Assembly: GCA_964534625.1 (NCBI GenBank)
Contig: CAZHRF010000001.1
Location: 12,436 to 36,435 of the forward strand
Reading direction: 5' to 3'
From: an uncultured archaeon
GTDB lineage: Archaea; Asgardarchaeota; Heimdallarchaeia; Heimdallarchaeales; Heimdallarchaeaceae
Length of the DNA: 24,000 nucleotides
The notes under the pieces are model-generated. The model was not told the DNA's origin. It did no database searches and saw only the letters and a program-made list of their open reading frames with translations. Within the stretch, counting starts at the first letter, position 1. The number at the start of each line of letters is the position of its first letter. Below are positions 1,600 through 23,005 of this stretch, piece by piece. The position numbers were made by a program, and so were the translations under genes.

Positions 1600-1612
1600 A
1601 TGTTTGGAATAA

Positions 1613-1642
1613 AAGTTCAAGAGGTCATCTGACCTTTGAACT
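1613..1642 (+). other. Strong hairpin in the 16S 3' trailer
   Basis: AAGTTCAA(G)AGGTC / GACCTTTGAACTT forms 13 bp with one bulged G and a 4-nt loop, 14 nt after the 16S 3' end. It lies inside the 16S flanking stem (108-121 pairs with 1677-1690), and a T6 run follows at 1693-1698. Confidence 0.6.
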
Positions 1643-1832
1643 TCCATTCCCTTATTATTACAATATTTGCTTAGGGTTCTTGTATTCTGTGGTTTTTTGA
1701 TTAAAAATTATTTCTTCAATTTTTTGACTTTTTATTCTCTTGTTGTTTTTATTAGTTTTTTATAGTATTCTTTTCTTCATATTTCTTCATCTTTCCATAA
1801 AAATTATTATAGAGAACGTTTTAACTTTAATT

Positions 1833-2234
1833 ATGAACTTTCAATCATCTCTCCCCACTCTAATTAAACAAGCAAAAAAAGCCTATTCTTTGGCTTTTGC
1901 GCCTTATAGTAATTTTAAAGTTGGAGCTGCTTTACTGACAGAAGATGGAAACATTTATTCTGGTTGTAATGTTGAATTTGCAGATTATTTAGTTTTACAT
2001 GCTGAGTTAAACGCAATTGGGTCTGCAGTAACTTCAGGCGAAACTAGTTTTGTAGCTATGGTTATTTATTCTAATCGCGAACCTCCTGTTCTCCCTTGTG
2101 GTTCTTGTAGACAAAAAATTTATGAATTTTCGGCTCTTCATAATACTGATATTAGAGTTATTGCTATTAATAATAATACTCAGATAAGTTCTTCGATAAA
2201 AACGCTTTTACCTGATGCAGATATTTTTAATTGA
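1833..2234 (+). CDS. cdd: Cytidine deaminase (small CDA-type zinc deaminase)
   Basis: Zinc-ligand motifs LHAELNAI (H/C-A-E) and PCGSCRQKIYE (PCxxCRQ). 133 aa from the ATG at 1833, which fits tetrameric CDA size. The track ORF starts at TTG 1740, but that extension is a low-complexity F/I/L-rich read-through of the AT-rich promoter region. Confidence 0.8.
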   Translation: MNFQSSLPTLIKQAKKAYSLAFAPYSNFKVGAALLTEDGNIYSGCNVEFADYLVLHAELNAIGSAVTSGETSFVAMVIYSNREPPVLPCGSCRQKIYEFSALHNTDIRVIAINNNTQISSSIKTLLPDADIFN

Positions 2235-2277
2235 TTTTTTAAAGTATTAAACACTTAAACGAAATCTACTTTTATGT

Positions 2278-2424
2278 TTATTCTATTACTTTATAATTCA
2301 TACAATTAGCACATAACCAGAAATCCTTCACTTCTTTCAATTCTATATCATCTGGAAGATAATCGTGTTTTTTGATCATTGTTCCCCCACATTTTGGACA
2401 TTTTTTTACATTTTCGTCATTCAT
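2278..2424 (-). CDS. Small zinc-ribbon protein, 48 aa (hand-translated, below the ORF-track cutoff)
   Basis: Minus-strand ATG at 2424-2422 to TAA at 2280-2278: MNDENVKKCPKCGGTMIKKHDYLPDDIELKEVKDFWLCANCMNYKVIE. Two CxxC pairs (CPKC ... CANC) are typical of a zinc ribbon. A TTTATA-like box (plus coordinates about 2455-2461) sits about 30 nt upstream. Confidence 0.45.
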   Translation of the reverse strand: MNDENVKKCPKCGGTMIKKHDYLPDDIELKEVKDFWLCANCMNYKVIE

Positions 2425-2494
2425 TTGTTTTCACGAGATAATATTGAATACCACTATAAATTATTTCTGCATCTTAAGTTTTTTTCCTTCCTTA

Positions 2495-2532
2495 GTAGTT
2501 ACAAAATAGTACTGTAGTTACAAAATAGTACT
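2495..2532. repeat. Perfect tandem direct repeat, 2 x 19 nt (GTAGTTACAAAATAGTACT)
   Basis: Units at 2495-2513 and 2514-2532 are identical. Each contains the AGTACT palindrome core. The repeat lies in the divergent intergenic region between the zinc-ribbon ORF (minus) and the GC-rich RNA (plus). Confidence 0.9.
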
Positions 2533-2624
2533 CTATTTGTATGATTTTTGTGATGAGTTTTTTAGGCAGTTTTAGGAACTTACCTAAAAATGTAGCACTT
2601 CACCCAACTGGCAACGTGACGAAG

Positions 2625-3021
2625 AGGAACATGATGTACCTGTAGTCAAGGAGTATACGAGAAGAATCCGGGAACAAAAGGACATACTGGTCCTGTGGCG
2701 ATAGAAGCACAGATGATACGGACAAGGCTAAATGGCACGACCTTAGCGCCCGTAAGCGGGTTCATTGCACTATTGACCCTGGGACTCATGGGTGGCCCAA
2801 CTAGGTTTAGTCAGTCATCCTTAGGAAGACTACCACCTCCAGGGCGACAGACTGGTCATTCACGGAGAAGAACCAGAAACTGTCTGGTACTGCGACCAAT
2901 GGCCGAGTACGGTGAAAGAACGGTATAAAGAGAGGGGGAAATAAGAGTGAGAATGAAGGTCTTTAATCGTTGAATACTTGGCCATAATTACATAGTTAAC
3001 AAACCGCCTGGCTATGTTCTT
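2625..3021 (+). ncRNA. GC-rich structured RNA, candidate RNase P RNA (SRP RNA is the alternative)
   Basis: A sharp GC-rich island in AT-rich DNA with many local helices.
- Terminal helix AGGAACAT (2625-2632) pairs with ATGTTCTT (3014-3021), 8 bp.
- CR-I-like GAGAAGAATCCGGGA (consensus GAGGAAAGUCCGGGC), beginning about 2660.
- CR-V-like ACAAACCGCCTGGCTAT (2998-3014; E. coli ACAGAACCCGGCUUAU) directly abuts the terminal helix, as expected for P4-P1.
- Adjacent hairpins GCTAA..TTAGC and GCCCGtaagCGGGT resemble P8/P9.
- The proposed P4 pairing has an A-C mismatch and CR-II/III placement is unclear, so the identity is tentative. That it is a structured RNA is more secure (about 0.75). Confidence 0.45.
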
Positions 3022-3469
3022 GGCACCATTTAAGTCAGCATGGCATAGGCTAAAATTTTCTTTAAGTGGATGGAATCCTTAAATGTTTTCTTAATTCGGA
3101 TTAGTACTATTACTAAAGCTAATTATGAATAAAAATCTGTTTTTTTACCATACGTCTTCTAGCGGGTGTAGAACAAACCAAGATTATAACATTTATACTA
3201 AAATAGAGCGTTTTGTAACAAACACAAATAAGGTGATGAATAAAAATGCCATAAGCATTAAGGTTCTATGAAAATGGAATTTGAGAGAAAAAAAAGATTG
3301 TGTGGAAAATATGCTGTGATTCAGTTTTAAAGCTTCCAATTAAGTAATGGAGTTTTCACATATTCAGAGCGTAACCTTCTTAAACACAACAATGCTTTAT
3401 CTCGTGTTTGATATATCTAGGTATGTCTGATTTAAATTAACAAGTATATACCTAGTTTATTGATGTAAA

Positions 3470-5377
3470 TTGAAGGTGAATATATTGAATCTTGAACAAT
3501 GGATCAACGAAAAAGATTTACAAAAACTTGAATCTCTTAATAATGAAAAAATTATGAAAGTAATCCATGATTTTTTATCCCTCTGTAAACCAAAAGAAGC
3601 TAAAGTAATAGATGACTCAAAAGAAGACATTGCTTCTGTTCGTCAATTAGCTATTAAAAATAGTGAAGAGCAGCAGTTGAAAATGGAAGGACATACGATA
3701 CATTTTGATGGTTTTTATGACCAAGCTAGGGACAAAAAAAACACTTGTATTTTAATTGATCCTGAAGAAAAGGATAAGTATGGTCCTCATCTTAATACAC
3801 TTCCTAGAACTGAAGGTTTAGATGAAATTTTAAATATCATGGATGGTTGTATGAAGAACAAAATTGCTCTAATCAGATTTTTCTGTTTAGGACCAACTAA
3901 CTCTTCATTCTCTCAATGTGCACTCCAAATTACTGATTCTGCTTATGTTGCTCATTCTGAAGACTTATTATATAGACGAGGATATGAAGAATTTAAAAGG
4001 CTTAAGGATCCTAATGATTTTTTTTATTTTATTCATTCAGCTGGTGAGTTGACCGATGCAAATGTCACTAAGAATGTAGATAAAAGGCGTATTTATGTTG
4101 ATTTACAAGAAAATCGTGTTCTTTCTGTAAATAATCAATATGCAGGTAATAGTCTTGGATTAAAGAAGCTTGCACTTCGATTGGCTATTAATAAAGCTAT
4201 TTACAATGGATGGTTAACTGAACACATGTTTATTTCTGGTATTCATTCTCCATTCAAAGAAAGAAAAAGTTATTTTTTGGGTGCATTTCCAAGTGCATGT
4301 GGAAAAACTTCTACTGCCATGGTACCTGGGAATACTATAGTTGGAGACGATATTGCATATCTTCGTTTAGATAATAAGAATATCCCAAAAGCTGTGAATA
4401 TTGAAAGTGGTATATTTGGAATTATAAAAGATGTTAATCCTAAAGATGACCCTGTTATATATAATACTCTCACTACAGAAAATGAATTGATATTTTCAAA
4501 TGTTTTGATTAATGATGGAACCCCCTATTGGATTGGAATGGGAGATCAAGTAGATATTCCCCAAAAAGGAACGAATTGGTCTTCATCTTTATTAGGTGAG
4601 TGGTATAAAGGAAAAAAAGGTCCAGATGGTAATGAATTACCCCCATCCCATCCAAATGCTAGATATACTATAAAAATTGAAGATCTTGAGAACTTTGATG
4701 AAACTTTACATGATCCCGAAGGCGTAATTGTTTCAGGAATTATTTATGGTGGTAGAGATTCTGATACTTCAGTACCTGTTTTTGAGTCATTTGATTGGGA
4801 ACATGGAGTTTACGTAGGTGCAACAATTGAATCCGAAACTACTTCTGCGACATTAGGTAAAACTGGTGTAAGAAAGCATAATCCAATGGCAAACCTTGAT
4901 TTCATTGTTGTTCCTCTTGGTGATTATATCAAGTCTCATCTAGATTTTGGAAAGAAAATACCTGATGACAATAGACCATGTATATTTTCAACTAACTATT
5001 TCTTGAAAGATGAAGATGGTCAATATTATGATGAAATTCTTGACAAGAAAGTTTGGTTATCTTGGGCAGAAGGGAGATATCATGGCGATTATGAAGCAAT
5101 TGAAACACCTATAGGTTACCTTCCAAAATATGAGGACTTAGTAGATCTTTTTCAAAACATTTTTGATAAACCATATGATAAAAAAAGATACCAAAAGGAA
5201 TTTTCTATAAGAGTTGATAAATTCCTCGAAAAATGTGATAGAATTGAAGAAAGTTTCAAACACGAGAACCTCCCCAATGAATTTTATACCCAGCATGACC
5301 TTCAGAAAAAAAGATTGTTAGATATAAAGAAAAAATATAACAAATCTATAATCTTTCCTTCCGATTTTATCAAATAG
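3470..5377 (+). CDS. pckG: Phosphoenolpyruvate carboxykinase (GTP)
   Basis: 635-aa ORF with the GTP-PEPCK kinase-1a P-loop FPSACGKTS, plus GDDIAYL, NARYT and GGRDSDT-type blocks. The start is uncertain: TTG 3470, GTG 3476, or in-frame TTG 3485. The last is preceded by the SD-like AAGGTGA (3473-3479). Confidence 0.9.
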   Translation: MKVNILNLEQWINEKDLQKLESLNNEKIMKVIHDFLSLCKPKEAKVIDDSKEDIASVRQLAIKNSEEQQLKMEGHTIHFDGFYDQARDKKNTCILIDPEEKDKYGPHLNTLPRTEGLDEILNIMDGCMKNKIALIRFFCLGPTNSSFSQCALQITDSAYVAHSEDLLYRRGYEEFKRLKDPNDFFYFIHSAGELTDANVTKNVDKRRIYVDLQENRVLSVNNQYAGNSLGLKKLALRLAINKAIYNGWLTEHMFISGIHSPFKERKSYFLGAFPSACGKTSTAMVPGNTIVGDDIAYLRLDNKNIPKAVNIESGIFGIIKDVNPKDDPVIYNTLTTENELIFSNVLINDGTPYWIGMGDQVDIPQKGTNWSSSLLGEWYKGKKGPDGNELPPSHPNARYTIKIEDLENFDETLHDPEGVIVSGIIYGGRDSDTSVPVFESFDWEHGVYVGATIESETTSATLGKTGVRKHNPMANLDFIVVPLGDYIKSHLDFGKKIPDDNRPCIFSTNYFLKDEDGQYYDEILDKKVWLSWAEGRYHGDYEAIETPIGYLPKYEDLVDLFQNIFDKPYDKKRYQKEFSIRVDKFLEKCDRIEESFKHENLPNEFYTQHDLQKKRLLDIKKKYNKSIIFPSDFIK

Positions 5378-5605
5378 CATCTTAATTTGTCAATGAATAT
5401 AGTAGCCTTTAAAATTAGGCTCTATTATTTATTTTTTATACAAAATTCAAAAACTCTAATCTCATAAATGGTGTCTCGAATATTTAACGTACCGATTAAA
5501 ATGATCAAAACGTACACAGCAAAATTTTGAAACGTTTCATTTTTCTATTGAAATAATAAAGGTAAAAATATTTTTTAATGGTTGAATTTATTGTAGATTG
5601 ATAAT

Positions 5606-6133
5606 ATGACTGTTTTATGGAAACAACTAGAAACTGGTCCAAATCCACCTGAAGAGATTTATTGTATAATTGAAAATCCAAAAAATAATAAAAATAAATA
5701 TGAAATGAGTAAAGATGGTATAATTTATTTAGACCGGGTTTTACATTCCTCTGTTCATTTTCCTGGTGATTATGGATTAATCCCCCAAACGTATTATGAG
5801 GATGGTGATCCTCTTGATGTATTGGTCCTAATAACTGAACCAACATTTCCTGGTTGTGTGTTAATGGCGCGTCCTATTGGTGTTTTAAAGATGAAAGATG
5901 AGAAGGGATCTGATGATAAAATTTTAGCTGTAGCTTCTAATGATCCTTTATATATGAAGGTTCACTCTTTGAATGATATTTATCCTCATACAATAATTGA
6001 AATCGCTGAGTTTTTTAGAAGCTACAAAGGTCTTGAACCTTCAAAAAAAACTGAGGTTAAAGGTTGGGAATCTAAAGAAGCTGCTCTAAAAACGATAGTT
6101 GATTCAATGAAATTATATAATGAGCTATTTTAA
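5606..6133 (+). CDS. ppa: Inorganic pyrophosphatase, family I
   Basis: 175 aa with family I PPase blocks: YEMSKDG...LDRVL, FPGDYGLIPQT, EDGDPLDVLVL, DDKILAV. The antisense ORF 5505-5846 is an artefact. Confidence 0.92.
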   Translation: MTVLWKQLETGPNPPEEIYCIIENPKNNKNKYEMSKDGIIYLDRVLHSSVHFPGDYGLIPQTYYEDGDPLDVLVLITEPTFPGCVLMARPIGVLKMKDEKGSDDKILAVASNDPLYMKVHSLNDIYPHTIIEIAEFFRSYKGLEPSKKTEVKGWESKEAALKTIVDSMKLYNELF

Positions 6134-7040
6134 GGATAGCGCCTTATGCTTTCAATTTTTAAAATCTATAATTATTAAATCGAAACACACGATGAATAGT
6201 TCTGATATACTCACTATATGCTTAATCCATCTTATTCTTAACCAAATGTCTTTTTTTAATAATGATCCCTTCATTGTTTGATTTATTGAGACTCAATCAG
6301 AACTAATAATGACTTAATATCCAGTTACAAGACGTGTACTTGGTATAGGAGCCACTATACAATATATCAAGCAAGGTATAGTGTATCAACTATTCATTGA
6401 AACATAGTAAAAATGCATCTAGGCCTCACTCAACCTAACAAACGTAAATTTTTCAAAAGTTTAAAAAAAAGTATAAAAAAACATTAAGGTTTTTATAGTT
6501 TTCCTATACCATACTTTAATCTATAGGAACTAATGTAAAAGGACTTTGTCCGTCATGTCCATCATTTCTATGAGGACCATCGAATTTAGCTTTCATTTTG
6601 ATTTCACCCAATTTTTATTGGTAATTGAATAATAGAAGAAACATTCAAGATACCAACAGAAAAAAAGTGACAGTACATATGTAGAAATTATAGCTAGTTG
6701 GATTAAATCATAGTTGAAACAATCAAAGGAATCATAGAACAATATCTTTTTATCTTAGGCGAGATAAGTAAATATACGAACATCAAGTTCGTAAATTCTG
6801 ATATCTTACTTTAACCAGTAAGAAAATATTAATTTAAAATATTCATATCAATATGTATTTGTTGTTGATAATTGGTGTTTATGATCAAAACTCAAAGTAT
6901 AGTGGTAGTAATTTATATACTTACTTGAAAAAGTTAATGAACACTAATTTTATATATGTAACAAAAACAACAAAGAATGCATATAAGATTAGTATCAAAT
7001 CACCTCCTAGGATGAAAATCCACTAGTAATTACAATATCA

Positions 7041-7091
7041 AACTAGTTAGCTAACAAGAACTCTCCAAATAGGCGAAAACTGAATTATTAC
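7041..7091 (+). other. 23S processing stem, 5' strand, with BHB half-site
   Basis: Pairs with 10489-10538.
- Outer helix 7041-7068 / 10511-10538: 28 positions with one G-U and one C-A.
- Central 4-bp helix GGCG (7072-7075) / TGCT (10501-10504).
- 3-nt bulge AAA (7076-7078).
- Inner helix ACTGAATtATTAC (7079-7091) / GTAATATTCAGT (10489-10500). Confidence 0.75.
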
Positions 7092-7108
7092 TATTTTAAA
7101 GTAACCTC

Positions 7109-10100
7109 AACTATGCATACGCCATGCAGTGGATGACTAGGCTAGGGTGCCGATGAAGGACGTGGTAAGCGGCGAAACGCTACGGGGAGGCGCATACAGC
7201 CATCGATCCGTAGGTCTCCGAATCGGATTTCCGGTTACAGTTGATAAGACTGTAACAACCAGTAATGGTGGGGAACGGCGGGAACCAAAACATTCAAGTA
7301 CCGCCAGGAAAAGAAAACAATCGTGATTCCGGTAGTAACGGCGAGTAAACCCGGAACAGGTCAAACCGAATGCCTATATTAATAATATGGGTGGATGTGG
7401 TGTTTTTGACTATCAAAGGATCGTCAGAGCTAAGTCGAAATAGCTTATGAAAGCTATGCCAAAGAAGGTAATAGCCCTGTAGACGTAAACTCTCGACCTG
7501 ATAGATTTCAAGATTAATGTGGCTTGGATTTGTCGCATGAATTTGGGAAAACTTAGTCCCAAACCTAAATACATCCCTAGACCGATAGCGAACTAGTAAC
7601 GTGAGTGAAAGTTGAAAAGTATTCGAAATACGAGAGTGAAAAGTCCCTGAAACTGTATGGTAACAGACGTGAATGGCTTAAAAGAGTAGATTCTGAGTGA
7701 AGGAAATCATTGTGAAGTGTGAGTACGAATTCAGAGGATCGAGGTCATTCGTTCCGTCTCGAAACACGGGCCGAGGAGTTTAAATCTGTGGCAAGACAAA
7801 ACATTAGTGGTGTCGTAGCGAAAGCAACCAGCACGCAGCCGTAAGGTCAGGTGCGACGTCCGACAAGGGCGTGAAGTCACAGGTTTAAGACCCGAAAGCA
7901 GTTGATCTATCCCTGGTCAAGATGAAGCGCTTCGAAAGGGGCGTGGAGGTCTGAAGAGGTATTGATATGCAATTCATTCTTCTGAATTGGGGATAGTGGC
8001 AAAAGACCAATCTAAACTGCTGATAGCTGGTTCCTCCCGAAGTATAACCACAGTATAGCGTCATTGGAGGTCGTATGTGCGGTAGAGCGACGGGTGGGGG
8101 TTTCCGTGGAGTGAAATCTGCGCGCCCCTTTCCAACTCCGAACTTGCATACACCATAGAAGATGATAGACGGGCGCATATCCGCAAGGGATATGGCCGAA
8201 AGGGGATCAACCCTACGATGGGTTAAGGGCCCTAAATCCCGGTTAAATGTTAAACAGAATGGCGTCCAACAGCGAAGACAATGAGGCGGTAAGCTTAGAA
8301 GCAGCTAACCGTTAAAAAAAGCGTAACAGCTTACTCATCGAGTTGTTGGGCCCAGAAAATGGACGGGGCTAAACCGGGTCCCGATACCTGTCCGGACTTC
8401 AAAAGAGTCTCGGGTAGGGAGGCGATCGGATTGGACAGAAGCTGGGAAGTGATTTCCAGTGGACCGTTCTGATTTGCAGATCTCGGCGGTAGTAGGAGCA
8501 TAGTGAGGTGGGAATCCTCATCGCCAAAAGCCCAAGGGTTCCTTGGCACTGTTCGTCAGCCAAGGGTTAGTCGGTCCTAAGGTGGAACTTAATACGACAA
8601 ACCGAAAGGGAAACAGGTTCATATTCCTGTACCATACGTATAGTCGCGGCAACGCAAGTTCCGAGCTGACACTAGTGGGTAGGTGGTCTAAAAATCAAAT
8701 TTTAGTTAAATCAAGAAATCTGGGAAGAACCGTTATGGTGAGAACCAGACGAATTGATGAATAGGCGAGCCATTGGTTGCTTGCTACCATTGATCCCAAT
8801 AGTCCGTGAAAAAGCGAAGAAAAATACGATTACGTATGACCGTACCCAGAACCGACACAGGTGTGGCTAGCTGAGAAGGCTAAGGCGTGTTAGGATAGTT
8901 TAGGTGAAGGAAATCGGCAAATTGGCCCCGTACCTTGGGTATAAGGGGTGCCTGGAAAGGTGAATGCCTTACCAGGTCGCAGTGACAAGGGGCACCCGAC
9001 TGTTTAATAAAAACATAGCAAACTGCAAGGGTGAAAACCTGTGTACAGTTTGTGAATCCTGGCCAGTGCAGGTGATTGAAACCGGGGTACAACTCGGCTA
9101 AGACCCTGTAAACGCCGGAGCTAACTATGAGCTTCTTAAGGTAGGCAAATGCCTAGTCTGCTAATTACAGACGTCCATGAAGGGACCAACGAGGTGCCCG
9201 CTGTCTCCACCTAAAACCTACTGAACCCACAGTCCAGCGAACAGTCTGGAACGCACCATCGGGAAGAGAAGACCCTGTGGAGCTTTACTGCTGTCAGGGG
9301 CTGTTATACTGGTGTGCATGCATAGAATAGTCAGGAGATGTTGATGGTGTGTTCTCCGGGACACACTGAAGTTGATCTTGAAATACTGACCATGTGCATT
9401 GGTATGACTTACCTCTTGCGAGGGGGACACCCCCTGCCTGGCAGTTTCACTGGGGCGGTAGCCTTTTGAAAAGATATCAAAAGGGCCCAAAGCCGAGCTC
9501 AACCGGGACAGAAATCCGGTGTAGAGTGCAAGGGCAAAAGCTCGGTTGACTGTGAATCCAATTAAACGGTTCGCAGATGTTAACGCAGGGCCTAGCGATC
9601 TTTCGCATTTGCCATATGTAGGCGGCGGAAGTGACAGAAAAGTTACCCCAGGGGTAACTGCACTTCTAAACGGAAGTGGCTTAAAAACTGGGTAACAATT
9701 ACATTTATTATCTTTCAAAAAGGTTTATCAAAAAGGCAAAAATTTTTGGGTCTTCCTAAACGATTTATATAGTGAGGAAATAGTCAAGTAACTTCAGTTA
9801 CAGGCCTATTGATTTGAGCAGATAGATTAACCTGATATTAAGAAACCATCAGAACACAGTAAAACTATAAGAGCCATTATTCCGTGAGTGAACGATAGAT
9901 AGGTTAAGAGATTGGTAACTTGCCTTTACAGGCCGACAACTGGTCTCTAATAACCGATGTGCAAAAATATTTTGTGCAAGTGCAGCCCTGAACAGAGTTG
10001 TCGTGGGTAAGAGTTCACATCGACCTCACGGCTTGCTACCTCGATGTCGGCTCTTCCTAGCTTGGTGGTGATTAAGCCACCAAGAGTGGGGTTGTTCGCC

Positions 10101-10473
10101 CATTAAAAGGGAACGTGAGCTGGGTTTAGACCGTTGTGAGACAGGTTGGATTCTATCTGATGGTGCTGGCGGGCGATTGAGAGCAAAATCTCCACAGTAC
10201 GAGAGGAACAGGCGGTTGGGGCCGCTGGTGTACCGGTTGTTCTAAAGAGCATTGCCGGGTAGCTAAGCCCTTGACGATAAGAGCGGAAAGCATCTATGCT
10301 CGAAGCGTTTCTCAAAACGAGTCGCCCATTCTGCTCTATTCTGGGGACTGGTGACAGTAACCTTAAGAGTAGACGAGAGCGCGGAAAAAAGATCCGTTTG
10401 ATAGAGCGGGGGTGTAAGCGTCGAGCTTTGGCGAGATGTTTAGCCTACCGCTACTAACTGCTCAAGCATAGTT
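7109..10473 (+). rRNA. 23S large-subunit rRNA (archaeal), interrupted by a 335-nt insertion
   Basis: 5' region GGATGACTAGGCTAGGGTGCCGATGAAGGACGTGG. Sarcin-ricin loop AGTACGAGAGGAAC (10196-10209). PTC block ACCTCGATGTCGGCTC (10038-10053). GGGAACGTGAGCTGGGTTTAGACCGT is also present. Helix 1: AACTATGC (7109-7116) pairs with GCATAGTT (10466-10473). The ends are approximate (+/-10 nt). Length is 3365 nt with the insertion and about 3030 nt without it. Confidence 0.95.
9657..9991 (+). other. Putative BHB-type (archaeal) intron in 23S domain V, ORF-less, 335 nt
   Basis: Conserved sequence stops at ...CCCCAGGGGTAA (9657) and resumes at CAGAGTTGTCGTGGGTAAGAGTTCAC (9993).
- Central helix GGGG (9651-54) / CCCT (9986-89).
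- Bulges TAA (9655-57) and GAA (9990-92).
- Inner helix CTGCACTT (9658-65) / AAGTGCAG (9978-85), 8 bp.
- The exact cut sites are ambiguous within the shared AA. The length is 335 nt either way. Confidence 0.65.
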
Positions 10474-10488
10474 AGGCCAAATGAAGTG

Positions 10489-10538
10489 GTAATATTCAGT
10501 TGCTAAATACTTGGAGAGTTCTTGTTAATTAACTAGTT
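10489..10538 (+). other. 23S processing stem, 3' strand, with BHB half-site
   Basis: Partner of 7041-7091. In order: inner helix 10489-10500, central TGCT 10501-10504, 3-nt bulge AAA 10505-10507, then TAC and TTGGAGAG... forming the outer helix. Confidence 0.75.
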
Positions 10539-19054: not shown

Positions 19055-19477
19055 ATGAGACTTGAAAGAAAAATAGCAATAGCTTTAGCAAAAGAGTTGA
19101 AACGCATAACACAAAAAGCAAAATTAGAAGCATTGGCTGTTTTAACCGCAACAGGAGATAGAATTGCTTTTTATGCTGGTGACAAACGTGCTAATTCAAC
19201 GGAACTCTCGGCAATAGGTGCTGCATTGGTTGCAGCAGCTCGTTTGGCATTAGAACGCTTAAATTTTTCACCTATTAATGATGTGATGGTTAGAGGTAAA
19301 AAGGGCTTTTTGATTTTGAAATCAATTGGTGACTTTCACTTGGTTGGTGGAACCAGTGACATTGAAGAGTTCAAATCGGCCATCTCTGTTCTATCACAAC
19401 ACGCACCAAAAATTGCAGATATCCTAACATATGTGAATATTGATGAAGATGGTGGAATTATTGTTGATACAGATTAA
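19055..19477 (+). CDS. Roadblock/LC7 (MglB-like) domain protein
   Basis: 140 aa. The pattern LEALAVLTATGDRIAFYAG ... ELSAIGAALVAAA ... INDVMVRGKKGFLILKSIGDFHLVG fits the alpha-beta-beta-alpha-beta-beta Roadblock fold signature. Confidence 0.75.
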   Translation: MRLERKIAIALAKELKRITQKAKLEALAVLTATGDRIAFYAGDKRANSTELSAIGAALVAAARLALERLNFSPINDVMVRGKKGFLILKSIGDFHLVGGTSDIEEFKSAISVLSQHAPKIADILTYVNIDEDGGIIVDTD

Positions 19478-19680: not shown

Positions 19681-21939
19681 GTGTCTGGTAGAACTGAAAT
19701 GTCTGGTATATTCGGTAACTTTTGGGAAAAAGTCGTTGATCATTTTGAAGACTATGAAATTGATAAAGAATTTTTATTACACAAACTTGCTCTAATTTGT
19801 ATACTAACTGCAGGTATCATTATTCGACTTTTTTCTTTAATCAAGGGTTATGATATTATTATTAAAGCATTTGATCCCTATGTTCAATTTATAAGTGCCA
19901 ACTATATTGAACGGAATGGTTTTATAGATTTTGTTCATTGGGTAAAAAATGATTCTTGGTATCCTTTTGGGTTCCATATAGGTAGGGAATTGTATTGGGG
20001 CGTACCTATTAGTGCTATTGTTCTCCATTGGTTTCTTAATCTTCTTACTTTTAATGTAACAATGCAACAAGTTGCATATTTTATTCCCGTTATTTATGGT
20101 GGATTAACAATTATTGCCTCTTATTATTTGGGAAAAGAAACGATCAGTTCGAGAGCTGGACTGTTGACTGCACTATTTATGTCTATACTTCCCTCTTATG
20201 CCTCCCGTAGTGTAGCTGGCTTTTTTGATAATGAATATATTGGAATACTTTTTGTTGTATTGTCTTTATACTTCTTTTTGCGTGCCCTAAAAAGAGATGA
20301 TACCTTATCAGCATTTTTAGCTGGCATATGCTTAGCTGTGCTTATGGGCAGTTGGGGTGCATATAGATATGTGCTTGATTTACTGCCTCTTTGTGTGTTG
20401 TTCTTACTTTTATCGAGAAAAGTGACTTATAATCTAATAAAAACTTATACTATTACTAATTTTGTTGCTATAAGTTTGGGATTTATTGTTAAAAGAGTTA
20501 TTATGAATAAATTCTTTGGTATAGAAGTAATGATACCCATTTTAATGATAGCTTTGTTAATCTTTGTTGGGATAATACAAAATATATCAAGAAGTTTGCC
20601 TGAAAAAACATTCAAACAAGTACTTCTGATAGGGGCAATAAGTTCAATTTTATTACTTAGTATCATTGTGGGTGTGTTACTTTCTGTTGGTATATTTGAT
20701 AACATAGCTGCCAAATTCTGGGCTGTGATTATTCCACGGGGTAGGGTAGATATACCTATTATTAATTCAGTGAGTGAGCACCAACCTATGCCTTGGGGTT
20801 CACTATTCAGAAACTTCCACATACTAACATTTTTCATGCCGTTAGGGATATATTATTGTTTAAAAAAGCCAACTGATGTTAATATATTTATTCTAGTTTT
20901 TGGTGTTTCTGCTATCTATTTCACTGGATCTATGATACGGTTGGTCTTACTTTTAGCACCCGCTGCATCATTATTAAGTGCATTAGCTATAGATAGGATA
21001 CTATACCCTTATTCGTTGAGTGCTCATGGAAAAATAGCTTTAACTCGAAGGAAAGTACGTATTTCCAAATCAATAGGGCGGGATGAAGCAATGATTGCCT
21101 ATATTGTGATATCCTTACTCTTGTTGACTTTTGTCTTCCACTGTGTAAAAATCTCTGAAGGTTATGCTGCACCGGAGATGGCACCGCCGTCACCATATGG
21201 GAATTCTGTACCTATGACTGATTGGCAAGATGCATTAGCTTGGTTAAGAGAAAATGCTCAAGGACCTGGTGTTATTCCTAATAGCCCTTCTGTTGTTTTG
21301 AGTTGGTGGGATTATGGTTATTGGATAACCAATTATGGTAATGCTACTACTCTAGTAGATAATGCTACGACAAACAAAACGCAGATTGGTACTGTGGGTA
21401 CTATGCTTATGTGGAACCTCACCGAATCTATACGGTTAATGTATAGATATAATGTCAAATACGTGTTGGTCAATAGTCAAGCTGGTGTTACTTGGTTGGG
21501 TTCTGATCTAGGAAAATCTGCTTGGTGTATCCGTATTGCAGAAGCCGATGTCCCTCATTATGGGATTAAAGAATCTGATTACATTGTAGAAGAAAGTGAT
21601 GGGAGGCGCATTTATGCGAAACCTTTCTATGAATCAGTTCTATATAGATTATCGGCATATGACAAAGACACTGGTTTTGCATTTGACGGGCAGTATGGGC
21701 CCACAGGCCAAAATGCTCCATCTATATTTGCAAAAGCATCAGATTATCCTGTTAAAGATTTAAAAGGGCCTGATGGTCATATATACTTTACTGAGGTTTA
21801 TAGAAGTTACGGATTGGGAACTGACTCCGCAGGTACAGGAAGAGCCTTTCCGGGTGTGCGTATTTATGAAGTTATTTATCCTCCAAATATAGCCCAATTA
21901 GCAGCTGAACTTGATATGTTATATCCTAAAAATGGATAA
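19681..21939 (+). CDS. aglB: Oligosaccharyltransferase AglB (STT3 family)
   Basis: 752 aa. Multi-pass N-terminal membrane domain, the catalytic WWDYGYW motif (LSWWDYGYWIT), and a soluble C-terminal domain. The GTG start at 19681 is preceded by AGGTGA (19668-19673) with 7-nt spacing. The ATG at 19699 is an alternative. Confidence 0.9.
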   Translation: MSGRTEMSGIFGNFWEKVVDHFEDYEIDKEFLLHKLALICILTAGIIIRLFSLIKGYDIIIKAFDPYVQFISANYIERNGFIDFVHWVKNDSWYPFGFHIGRELYWGVPISAIVLHWFLNLLTFNVTMQQVAYFIPVIYGGLTIIASYYLGKETISSRAGLLTALFMSILPSYASRSVAGFFDNEYIGILFVVLSLYFFLRALKRDDTLSAFLAGICLAVLMGSWGAYRYVLDLLPLCVLFLLLSRKVTYNLIKTYTITNFVAISLGFIVKRVIMNKFFGIEVMIPILMIALLIFVGIIQNISRSLPEKTFKQVLLIGAISSILLLSIIVGVLLSVGIFDNIAAKFWAVIIPRGRVDIPIINSVSEHQPMPWGSLFRNFHILTFFMPLGIYYCLKKPTDVNIFILVFGVSAIYFTGSMIRLVLLLAPAASLLSALAIDRILYPYSLSAHGKIALTRRKVRISKSIGRDEAMIAYIVISLLLLTFVFHCVKISEGYAAPEMAPPSPYGNSVPMTDWQDALAWLRENAQGPGVIPNSPSVVLSWWDYGYWITNYGNATTLVDNATTNKTQIGTVGTMLMWNLTESIRLMYRYNVKYVLVNSQAGVTWLGSDLGKSAWCIRIAEADVPHYGIKESDYIVEESDGRRIYAKPFYESVLYRLSAYDKDTGFAFDGQYGPTGQNAPSIFAKASDYPVKDLKGPDGHIYFTEVYRSYGLGTDSAGTGRAFPGVRIYEVIYPPNIAQLAAELDMLYPKNG

Positions 21940-21969: not shown

Positions 21970-22243
21970 ATTGGAATATTTGAAGAGATGTTTTAGATTA
22001 TTCTTATTTGTAATATAATCTTGGTACTTTCGCTCCGTTAGTCTTTGTAGTCTTAGTACTATTTGTTACACTTTTTACATAAAGAATTGAAATTAATCAG
22101 AAATATAGAAGATATGTATGTGTTCAGTATAGAACCTCTCTTTCAATTAGTGTTCAAAGATGGGACTAATTTTAGTTAAGCTAATAGGTTGCTCTTTAAT
22201 AGTAAAATTTTAATTGTTTTGATGATGAAATAAATTGAATAAT

Positions 22244-23005
22244 ATGACTAATTTTATCCATAAAATCATAAATCTATTTAAAACAGAGGAAACAAAATTT
22301 AAAACAGAAATGACAGAGAGACTAGAAAAAGAAAAACATATTAATTTAAAGACCGTCAATACAAAACTGCCCATAGATAACCGTATTTGTTTATTTCAAG
22401 AAATTGTGAAAAAAAGAAGAATTAACGGTGTTTATCTTTCGAAACACTATCATTTCTTTTTAATGTCTGAAATGGATATTTCAAATATAAAAACAAAATT
22501 AAAAAGAGAAGGAAGAATAGAAATAAAAGATTTTTTCCAAAAGTGGAATGTAGACAAGAAAGTAATCGCTAGTTTACTAAACCAATTTGAGCGGGGAATT
22601 ATGGGTAAGAGAGAATATTACGCTATCTCTCACCTAGAGAATAGTTATTATTCAAAACTTAGGAACGTTGATGAATATGAACTTGAAAAACTAGAGGACG
22701 AAAACAAAGATTTGTCTATGGAACAAATTCATAGCATCATAAATAACCTTATTGAGACAAAAAGATTAAAGGGCACTATACAAAGCAATTCAAAATATCT
22801 TAGTGGTTCTAAATTCAGAGAGATTATGACCGAATATCTAGAAAAATTAGCAGAAAAATTTATTGAAATTTCTTTTAGTAAAATTAGCAGAGAACTAGAA
22901 ATAAAAAAATCAGAAATTGAAACATTTCTGATTGAATATGTAAAAAAGAATCCCAGCAAAATTACTATATATCCCTTAGACCAAAAGATTATATTCAAAA
23001 TATAA
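22244..23005 (+). CDS. Hypothetical protein with two winged-helix-like modules
   Basis: The track ORF begins at TTG 22235. The first ATG is at 22244. Two segments look like wHTH modules by eye: IEIKDFFQKWNVDKKVIASLLNQFERGIMGKREYYAIS and IEISFSKISRELEIKKSEIETFLIEYVKKNPSKITIYPLDQKIIF. There is no TM segment and I recognise no catalytic motif. Confidence 0.55.
   Translation: MTNFIHKIINLFKTEETKFKTEMTERLEKEKHINLKTVNTKLPIDNRICLFQEIVKKRRINGVYLSKHYHFFLMSEMDISNIKTKLKREGRIEIKDFFQKWNVDKKVIASLLNQFERGIMGKREYYAISHLENSYYSKLRNVDEYELEKLEDENKDLSMEQIHSIINNLIETKRLKGTIQSNSKYLSGSKFREIMTEYLEKLAEKFIEISFSKISRELEIKKSEIETFLIEYVKKNPSKITIYPLDQKIIFKI

Follow-up and report, generated by a model that had tools for sequence, protein, structure and literature searches.

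We analysed a stretch of 24,000 nucleotides (nt) of DNA from an uncultured archaeon of the Heimdallarchaeaceae (contig CAZHRF010000001.1), which will be referred to as the window, and found its 23S ribosomal RNA (rRNA) gene interrupted by 335 nt in the peptidyl-transferase loop. The insert is most probably an archaeal intron of the bulge-helix-bulge (BHB) type, located between A2450 and A2451 of a Heimdall-group 23S rRNA gene and dependent on the splicing endonuclease for its removal. A sequence-only reading of the same DNA had already proposed such an intron.

According to Rfam, the window carries an archaeal rRNA locus with a small subunit (SSU) rRNA gene at 120-1599 and a large subunit (LSU) rRNA gene at 7105-10477 on the plus strand, the latter being a full-length match to the archaeal LSU model RF02540 (2419 bits, model positions 1-2987). 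In the alignment to this model 362 nt of the window correspond to 27 nt of the model, leaving 335 extra nt which start directly 3' of GGGGUAAC / ACCCCAGGGGUAAC. One genome per species was scanned with GAAAAGYTACCCYRGGGGTAAC, yielding at least 119 archaeal LSU loci (L001-L119). Most of these are intron-less genes in which the sequence is unbroken (GGGGTAAC|AGAG/AGGC). The spacing to CTCGATGTCGG is 46 nt in intron-less archaeal LSU genes and 381 nt in the window, and the insertion in the peptidyl-transferase loop is therefore real. The 335-nt insertion in the 23S peptidyl-transferase centre (PTC) claimed by the sequence-only reading is thus borne out both by the covariance-model alignment of the insertion column and by the unbroken intron-less genes.

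The insert is rich in A+T, as had been noted, with a G+C content of 35.5% compared to 49% in the exons. The earlier statement that it contains no meaningful open reading frame (ORF) also stands: no ORF of more than 23 amino acids lies wholly inside the window intron, no LAGLIDADG or other homing endonuclease ORF was found in it, and the homologues described below measure only 341-381 nt. The interior had been called unalignable, which holds with respect to rRNA; it does align to the homologous introns of other genomes. An origin by duplication of nearby sequence was rejected, as the insert has no similarity to the rest of the window, and an Rfam search of the insertion at E values up to 10 returned chance matches only (U5, a snoRNA and a viral pseudoknot).

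Escherichia coli numbering was taken from rrlH of strain MG1655, in which GGGGAUAAC represents G2444-C2452 (G2444-G2447, A2448, U2449, A2450, A2451, C2452). Accordingly, U9655 is U2449, A9656 is A2450 and C9993 is C2452, placing the insert after U2449/A2450 and before A2451/C2452 in the catalytic loop. This confirms the former hand alignment, which had put the insertion between U2449 and C2452 next to A2451. For position A2448 either an indel or a substitution had been suggested; the window simply has G9654 there, a plain A-to-G substitution and not an indel. It is an ordinary archaeal variant, since the same GGGGTAAC is present in more than 100 intron-less archaeal LSU genes among the matches listed. 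Within the at least 119 species, G at 23S position 2448 is widespread in Nitrososphaerota, Asgard archaea, DPANN and some Thermoproteota and Euryarchaeota, and an intron-linked change at this position was rejected as it is common in intron-less archaea. A further A-to-G exchange, at 23S position 2453, was observed in the carriers L012, L047 and L123, in which the 3' exon starts with AACGGAG and not AACAGAG; it also occurs in several intron-less Thermoproteota.

The element was detected in further genomes. At least seven of the at least 119 genome loci (L012, L047, L060, L077, L083, L089 and L117), all from Heimdall-group or unclassified Asgard bins, contain an insertion of 342-381 nt at the same site which is alignable with the insert of the window. 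Scanning metagenomes with the interior motif GTAACT..CC..GG...ACAAYTGRTC..CRATGT added four more contigs, each of them an LSU gene that carries the element at the identical position. In total, at least 11 further copies (nine distinct) were obtained; together with the window these represent 10 distinct sequences in approximately five clades, all in Heimdall-group LSU genes. The intron of the window is 57-62% identical to those of the other carriers and the flanking exons are 92-94% identical, the overall ranges being 57-77% between intron clades and 92-100% among carrier exons, and the carrier exons are at most 74% identical to the other Asgard LSU genes in the set. The intron clades mirror the exon clades, a pattern that indicates vertical inheritance of the family in a single Heimdall clade. 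With R1, a covariance model built for the 3' domain (the long hairpin at 9902-9955), only the 12 copies were matched among 60 archaeal LSU loci (439 kb in total), and the element was found nowhere else in this search or in the interior-motif scan of metagenome contigs. No match was obtained in viral contigs, phages or plasmids, so that an origin from a mobile element or a virus is without support. The same data bear on the idea that the insertion is an assembly artefact or that the rRNA gene is dead. Nothing specific favours this apart from the metagenome-type assembly from which the window derives. Against it, the same element occupies the same site in 12 copies on independently assembled contigs, including seven genome bins of different studies, and the LSU gene reaches its 2419 bits at full length; we consider the chance of an artefact negligible.

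The evidence for splicing comes from the two ends of the insert, which can pair with each other and with the 5' exon. The features concerned, with the exons in the register given by the BHB cutting rule, are the following.

7105-9656, plus strand: exon 1 of the LSU rRNA (BHB-rule register).
9657-9991, plus strand: intron, 335 nt (BHB-rule register).
9992-10477, plus strand: exon 2 of the LSU rRNA (BHB-rule register).
9651-9654, plus strand: exon strand GGGG of the central helix H (23S positions 2445-2448), pairing with 9986-9989; 40 of 40 cells paired in 10 homologues.
9655-9657, plus strand: bulge of the 5' splice site, UAA (UAU in L123), from the sequence and the homologues; predicted cut 9656/9657 according to the enzyme rule.
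9658-9665, plus strand: 5' strand of the inner helix h', CUGCACUU, pairing with 9978-9985; 8 bp, 80 of 80 cells paired.
9978-9985, plus strand: 3' strand of h', AAGUGCAG, from pair counts.
9986-9989, plus strand: intron strand CCCU of the central helix H, from pair counts.
9990-9992, plus strand: unpaired stretch GAA of the 3' splice site, from mini-substrate folds; predicted cut 9991/9992.

In the window, H consists of 4 bp (GGGG/CCCU) and h' is a perfect helix of 8 bp. A 3-nt unpaired stretch follows 3' of each H strand, UAA after the exon strand and GAA after the intron strand, and both stretches are 3 nt long in 10 of 10 homologues. A block alignment of the 10 distinct sequences (A3) showed the 12 pairs of H and h' to be paired in 120 of 120 cells. 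Three h' pairs are compensatory, changing from G-C to A-U in the L060 clade, from A-U to G-C in five sequences and from C-G to U-A in L123, and h' covaries in homologues of five clades. Slid controls paired in 32-51% of cells, and the covariation score was reached by none of 500 shuffles. The BHB ends predicted by the sequence-only reading (GGGG/CCCT, bulges TAA and GAA and an 8-bp inner helix) thus withstood the comparison. The strict hBHBh' form failed as the outer helix h is missing; the motif is therefore of the relaxed HBh' form.

The exact junction was examined using the homologues. AAC at both ends of the insert gives rise to four junction registers in the window, all with an identical spliced product (intron at 9656-9990, 9657-9991, 9658-9992 or 9659-9993). 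The 5' junction of the homologue L123 reads GGGGUAUCUGC with UAU as bulge, and only two registers, with the cut after U or UA, restore GGGGUAAC; those equivalent to 9658-9992 and 9659-9993 are excluded. RNAalifold picks a pairing register shifted by two (CAGGG/CCCUG). In L012, the change from CCCU to CCCC converts a G.U into a G-C pair in the register of the sequence-only reading but creates an A.C mismatch in the shifted register, which therefore is disfavoured against the BHB register. The splicing endonuclease is known to cleave each bulge behind its second base, a rule in connection with which Xue et al. 2006 are reportedly named. Cuts at these positions give GGGGUA+ACAGAG, the PTC sequence of intron-less genes, and in L123 (UA/U, GA/A) the same rule gives GGGGUAACGGAG, corresponding to one of the two registers which this homologue permits. 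The likely cuts, as predicted from the enzyme rule, are consequently 9656/9657 and 9991/9992. The junction at 9657/9993 first proposed is one of the four equivalent registers of the window but is among those excluded in L123.

The insert might instead be no intron at all, but an expansion kept in the mature rRNA or a sequence excised without ligation, resulting in a fragmented 23S rRNA. Other Heimdall-group LSU genes do have insertions of 46-52 nt in the helix 89 region, and large expansion segments occur in Asgard LSU rRNAs (PMC7594248). Against this reading, expansions occupy fixed peripheral sites (PMC7594248), and the ends of the present insert bear a conserved and covarying splicing motif. 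Moreover, the insert separates A2450 from A2451 in the catalytic loop, a place at which to our knowledge expansions are not tolerated. We judge this explanation to be very improbable.

We propose the following course of events for an endonuclease-spliced intron. In the precursor, the intron ends would pair via the 8-bp h', intron CCCU and exon GGGG would form the 4-bp H, and UAA and GAA would be left unpaired, each 3' of its H strand. The (αβ)2 splicing endonuclease of the host would then cut after the second base of each stretch. RtcB ligase would join ...GGGGUA to ACAGAG..., thereby restoring the catalytic loop, and would also circularise the 335-nt intron with the circle junction ...CCCUGA-ACUGCAC.... 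The predicted spliced junction is ...CCCCAGGGGUA + ACAGAGUUGUC... and the predicted circle junction ...GCAGCCCUGA-ACUGCACUU.... The interior may act mainly in cis, bringing two sites 335 nt apart into register, and may also keep the A+U-rich insert from disturbing the folding of the rRNA. All archaeal rRNA introns characterised to date have the BHB core motif (PMC4496867). Only (αβ)2 and ε2 endonucleases with a specific loop cleave relaxed HBh' motifs, and Asgard archaea carry an (αβ)2 EndA with the L1 loop which confers HBh' cleavage (PMC5829648). The suggestion of the sequence-only reading that a relaxed motif goes along with an endonuclease of broad specificity fits these reports.

Several observations weigh against the endonuclease-spliced intron. 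No EndA gene is present in the 24-kb window. Mini-substrate folds form no adjacent outer helix, in line with the weak outer helix noted earlier, and favour the shifted pairing CAGGG/CCCUG with a 4-nt bulge by approximately 3 kcal/mol. The nearest exon-exon pairing in these folds, UUACCC (9643-48) with GGGUAA (10005-10), is distant, and the 3' site would lie in a loop of approximately 15 nt if it formed. The minimum-energy fold of the window traps the 5' site in an exon hairpin, and the exon GGGG is presumably also required for helix 74 of the mature rRNA. In addition, the U before the 5' site, the terminal G, the location at the ω site L2449, a length of 335-381 nt and an interior of conserved structure would all be expected of a group I intron as well, and a P1-like pairing of exon GGGGU with intron GCUCU can form in most homologues (86% of cells). 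Noted separately was a local hairpin, CACUUC-UAAACG-GAAGUG (9661-9678), which competes with h' and Hc (see below) in the window; similar competitors were observed in L083 and L060 but none in the L047 clade. This hairpin may be a folding switch or may have arisen by chance.

The interior of the intron is a conserved structured RNA and not unconstrained filler. Its elements are the following.

9670-9682, plus strand: 5' strands of the interior arm, Hc ACGGAA (9670-75) and Ha UGGCUU (9677-82), from the block alignment and pair counts.
9683-9870, plus strand: central domain with several hairpins, helices at A3 columns 101-144, 145-219 and 185-201.
9871-9885, plus strand: 3' strands of the interior arm, Ha GAGCCA (9871-76) and Hc UUCCGU (9880-85), from pair counts.
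9902-9955, plus strand: long conserved hairpin, from RNAalifold and pair counts.
9959-9977, plus strand: hairpin X, directly 5' of the 3' strand of h'; 95% of cells paired, one compensatory pair.

The inner helix h' thus closes a junction of three arms, namely Hc/Ha with the central domain, the long hairpin and hairpin X. Across the 10 distinct sequences, the nested model comprises 61 pairs in 12 helices of which 92.6% of cells are paired, with 12 pairs changed on both sides, compared to 35-42% pairing in slid controls; at least six internal helices covary. Hc shows one compensatory pair, Ha is longer in L047 and L123, and the Hc/Ha arm is present in the minimum-energy fold of the window. The long hairpin is composed of stem a (9902-05/9952-55), stem b (9908-16/9939-47) and an apical hairpin (9922-25/9930-33), and contains the near-invariant GAUUGGUAACU and GACAACUGRUC. 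Stems a and b both have compensatory changes; columns 350/391 switch from A-U to G-C and are paired in 10 of 10 sequences. Conserved blocks of the central domain are CUGGGUAAC, (A)UCUUUCAA = UCUUUUCAA, GUGAGGAA, UUGAGCAGA and AGAGCC, but its detailed fold in the window is uncertain because this region aligns poorly. Two further candidates were rejected. A pseudoknot Hb (ACGCUUAU/AUAAGCGU) crossing Ha could form in L083 and L123, but one of its pairs is broken in six of 10 sequences and it is less well kept than the nested Hc, whose 3' strand it shares. A box C/D guide RNA was considered on account of CUGA after GACAA and because one clade has AUGAUGG upstream of it; in the window this position reads CUGG, and a C box is absent.

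The sequence-only reading had also remarked that this region of the LSU rRNA is a hotspot for group I introns. The site is indeed L2449, which we take to be the position occupied by the ω intron in yeast mitochondria and by the nuclear L2449 introns of myxomycetes; a group I reading of the present insert is not supported. Such a self-splicing intron would have U2449 paired with a guide G, and G9990 as terminal ωG. The required register (U9655/A9656 ... G9990/A9991) is permitted in all homologues including L123, U9655 and G9990 are invariant, and size and conserved structured interior are typical. The invariant G9990 agrees with a terminal ωG, but the 3' bulge likewise starts with this base. 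For P1, exon GGGGU and intron columns 52-56 are paired in 86% of cells, compared to 68% in the slid control, and eight of 10 sequences have U.G. This pairing is beyond covariation as the exon is invariant, the window, L123 and L060 show it displaced or not at all, and its intron strand is better explained as the Ha strand against the invariant AGAGCC.

For the catalytic core, all conserved complementary column stacks were listed and the order P3, P7, P3', P8, P7' was required. One ordered helix set was obtained (P3 at columns 86-90/349-353, P7 at 343-347/386-390) which is 90% paired. However, this sole candidate is without compensatory change, its values were reached by all 500 shuffles, and it excludes stems a and b, which carry compensatory changes. 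No P3/P7 pseudoknot, P4-P6 or P8 core in canonical order was found that is compatible with the covariation. The intron ends, furthermore, pair in an 8-bp covarying helix beside both splice sites, and we know of no group I intron which pairs its two ends in this manner. The Rfam group I model RF00028 gave no match at E values up to 10. In the study reporting archaeal group I introns (PMC6125680), this model detected none of them, and it also gave no match on DPANN LSU loci with large insertions; it is insensitive to archaeal introns, and its silence therefore carries no weight. One such DPANN locus is the Iainarchaeum LSU gene L079 (5956-7918), with 1963 nt for approximately 830 model positions and insertions of approximately 1.1 kb, where the model is silent at E values up to 10. 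The group I sites known to date in archaea do not include L2449 (PMC6125680). Taken together, group I splicing is unlikely, and we give it a slim chance.

A related possibility is a group I ribozyme once resident at the ω site which gained a BHB motif, with the endonuclease taking over splicing and part of the old fold persisting as the interior. Tocchini-Valentini et al. 2011 put forward such a scenario, according to PMC6125680. The insert shares its position with classic group I introns, PMC6125680 describes group I introns of similar size, the interior is conserved although it contains no ORF, and the P1-like pairing can still form. Nevertheless, no recognisable P3/P7 pseudoknot or P4-P6 arrangement passes the covariation test, and the common site could also reflect homing endonucleases with similar targets or the tolerance of this loop for insertions. 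Such a relic is improbable, though conceivable.

The interior may also be a functional RNA in its own right, either a derivative of a group I ribozyme at L2449 which was taken over by the tRNA endonuclease, or a stable circular RNA acting on the ribosome; this we regard as doubtful but worth stating. The circular RNA is suggested because interior GACAACU (9935-41) is a perfect 7-nt complement of AGUUGUC in the 3' exon (9996-10002), the 5' strand of helix 89, and because GGUAAC of the splice site is present in three copies, at the 5' junction (window 9653-59) and in the conserved interior blocks 9691-96 and 9914-19. By estimate, approximately 0.7 such 7-nt exon complements are expected by chance; the GACAACU block is invariant. 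Interior GGGUAA is likewise complementary to UUACCC of the 5' exon. The exons are invariant, and the interior-exon pairings are therefore beyond the reach of covariation. If the interior were such a ribozyme derivative, the family would represent an extant intermediate on the route proposed to lead from group I to BHB introns.

Returning to the endonuclease-spliced intron, the family resembles the crenarchaeal rRNA BHB introns of Desulfurococcus mobilis 23S and Pyrobaculum/Thermoproteus 16S rRNA (PMC4496867) in being inserted into a conserved rRNA loop, in having the core motif at the exon-intron junctions and, as expected here, in removal by the tRNA splicing endonuclease and RtcB with a circular intron as product. 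It differs in its host, an Asgard (Heimdall-group) archaeon, in its location at 2450/2451 of the catalytic loop, in a conserved covarying interior fold and in the missing outer helix (HBh'). Furthermore, no Heimdall member has a LAGLIDADG gene and none resembles a decayed remnant. With relaxed HBh' tRNA introns, which are cut by (αβ)2 or ε2 EndA (PMC5829648), it shares the 4-bp central helix, one proper 3-nt bulge, the inner helix, a second site without a closing helix and a host group reported to have the matching enzyme; those introns measure tens of nt and interrupt tRNA, whereas the Heimdall substrate is rRNA and the intron 335 nt. The group I introns at L2449 (yeast ω; myxomycetes, PMC3511172) agree to the nucleotide in site, in the preceding U and in the G at the end. 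In contrast, the Heimdall ends are paired and form a BHB motif, and neither a P3/P7 core nor a conserved guide sequence could be identified. For myxomycetes, PMC3511172 reports the L2449 intron as a clade synapomorphy, which would be consistent with vertical inheritance. Archaeal group I introns of types IA3 and IB4 in LSU genes (PMC6125680) are alike in host gene and length, and some also have no ORF; they match group I subtype models and are located at L1923, L1931, L2500 and L2593, unlike the Heimdall family.

In the literature searched, neither a BHB rRNA intron in a Heimdall-group lineage nor an archaeal intron at 2450/2451 was found. We thus did not find described a family of this kind, which has no protein gene, a conserved fold and, among the matches listed, a distribution restricted to one clade. 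Endonuclease-spliced rRNA introns would hereby be extended to Heimdall-group Asgard archaea and to a new site, with hosts in the archaeal lineage closest to eukaryotes. A BHB intron at the exact ω site L2449 would be a further case of both intron types at one rRNA position, and this sharing of sites is relevant to a possible descent of archaeal introns from group I introns. A complex fold kept without a homing endonuclease despite divergence to 57% identity, with the flanking rRNA remaining 92-96% identical, points to selection on the RNA itself, making the family suited to asking which features enable a long intron to offer a relaxed motif. On the practical side, the 23S genes of carriers are 335-381 nt longer and split in their most conserved region, affecting rRNA gene calling, primers and phylogenies for this clade.

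The flanks of the LSU gene (7041-7085/10494-10538) fold into a long stem with a canonical hBHBh' motif and helices of at least 7 bp on either side.

7061-7085, plus strand: 5' strand of the LSU processing stem, with H GGCG (7072-75), bulge AAA (7076-78) and h' ACUGAAU (7079-85), from flank folding.
10494-10518, plus strand: 3' strand of the LSU processing stem, with h' AUUCAGU (10494-500), H UGCU (10501-04) and bulge AAA (10505-07), from flank folding.

This stem is presumably the usual archaeal site of pre-23S excision and circularisation. Owing to its canonical motif, the precursor is expected to be a substrate of the endonuclease anyway. Processing-stem motifs of this type, exemplified by that at 7072-78/10501-07, are like the intron motif with respect to enzyme and structure, but release a whole rRNA, whereas the BHB of the intron removes an internal segment so that the exons must be ligated.

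Other insertions were observed near the intron site in further genomes. The Heimdall-group loci L061 and L062 and the Hodarchaeota locus L087 have insertions of 46-52 nt slightly downstream, after GAGAGYUCAYA in the helix 89 region. The sequence also breaks after GAGAGYUCAYA in L019, L044, L053 and L057 (an Altiarchaeales, a Nanoarchaeota, a Methanosarcinales and a Micrarchaeia bin).

No 5S rRNA was detected in the window with Rfam. The SSU and LSU rRNA genes are 5.5 kb apart, and the gap (1600-7104) contains protein genes on the same strand.

1740-2234, same strand as the rRNA genes: cytidine deaminase.
3470-5377, same strand as the rRNA genes: GTP-dependent phosphoenolpyruvate (PEP) carboxykinase.
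5606-6133, same strand as the rRNA genes: inorganic pyrophosphatase.

Two proteins similar to eukaryotic signature proteins (19055-19477 and 22235-23005) adjoin an STT3/AglB gene (19681-21939); a Roadblock/LC7 domain is present in one of them, and the other matches PCI and E3 UFM1-ligase profiles. These Roadblock/LC7, STT3 and PCI/UFM1-ligase-like genes fit an Asgard host.

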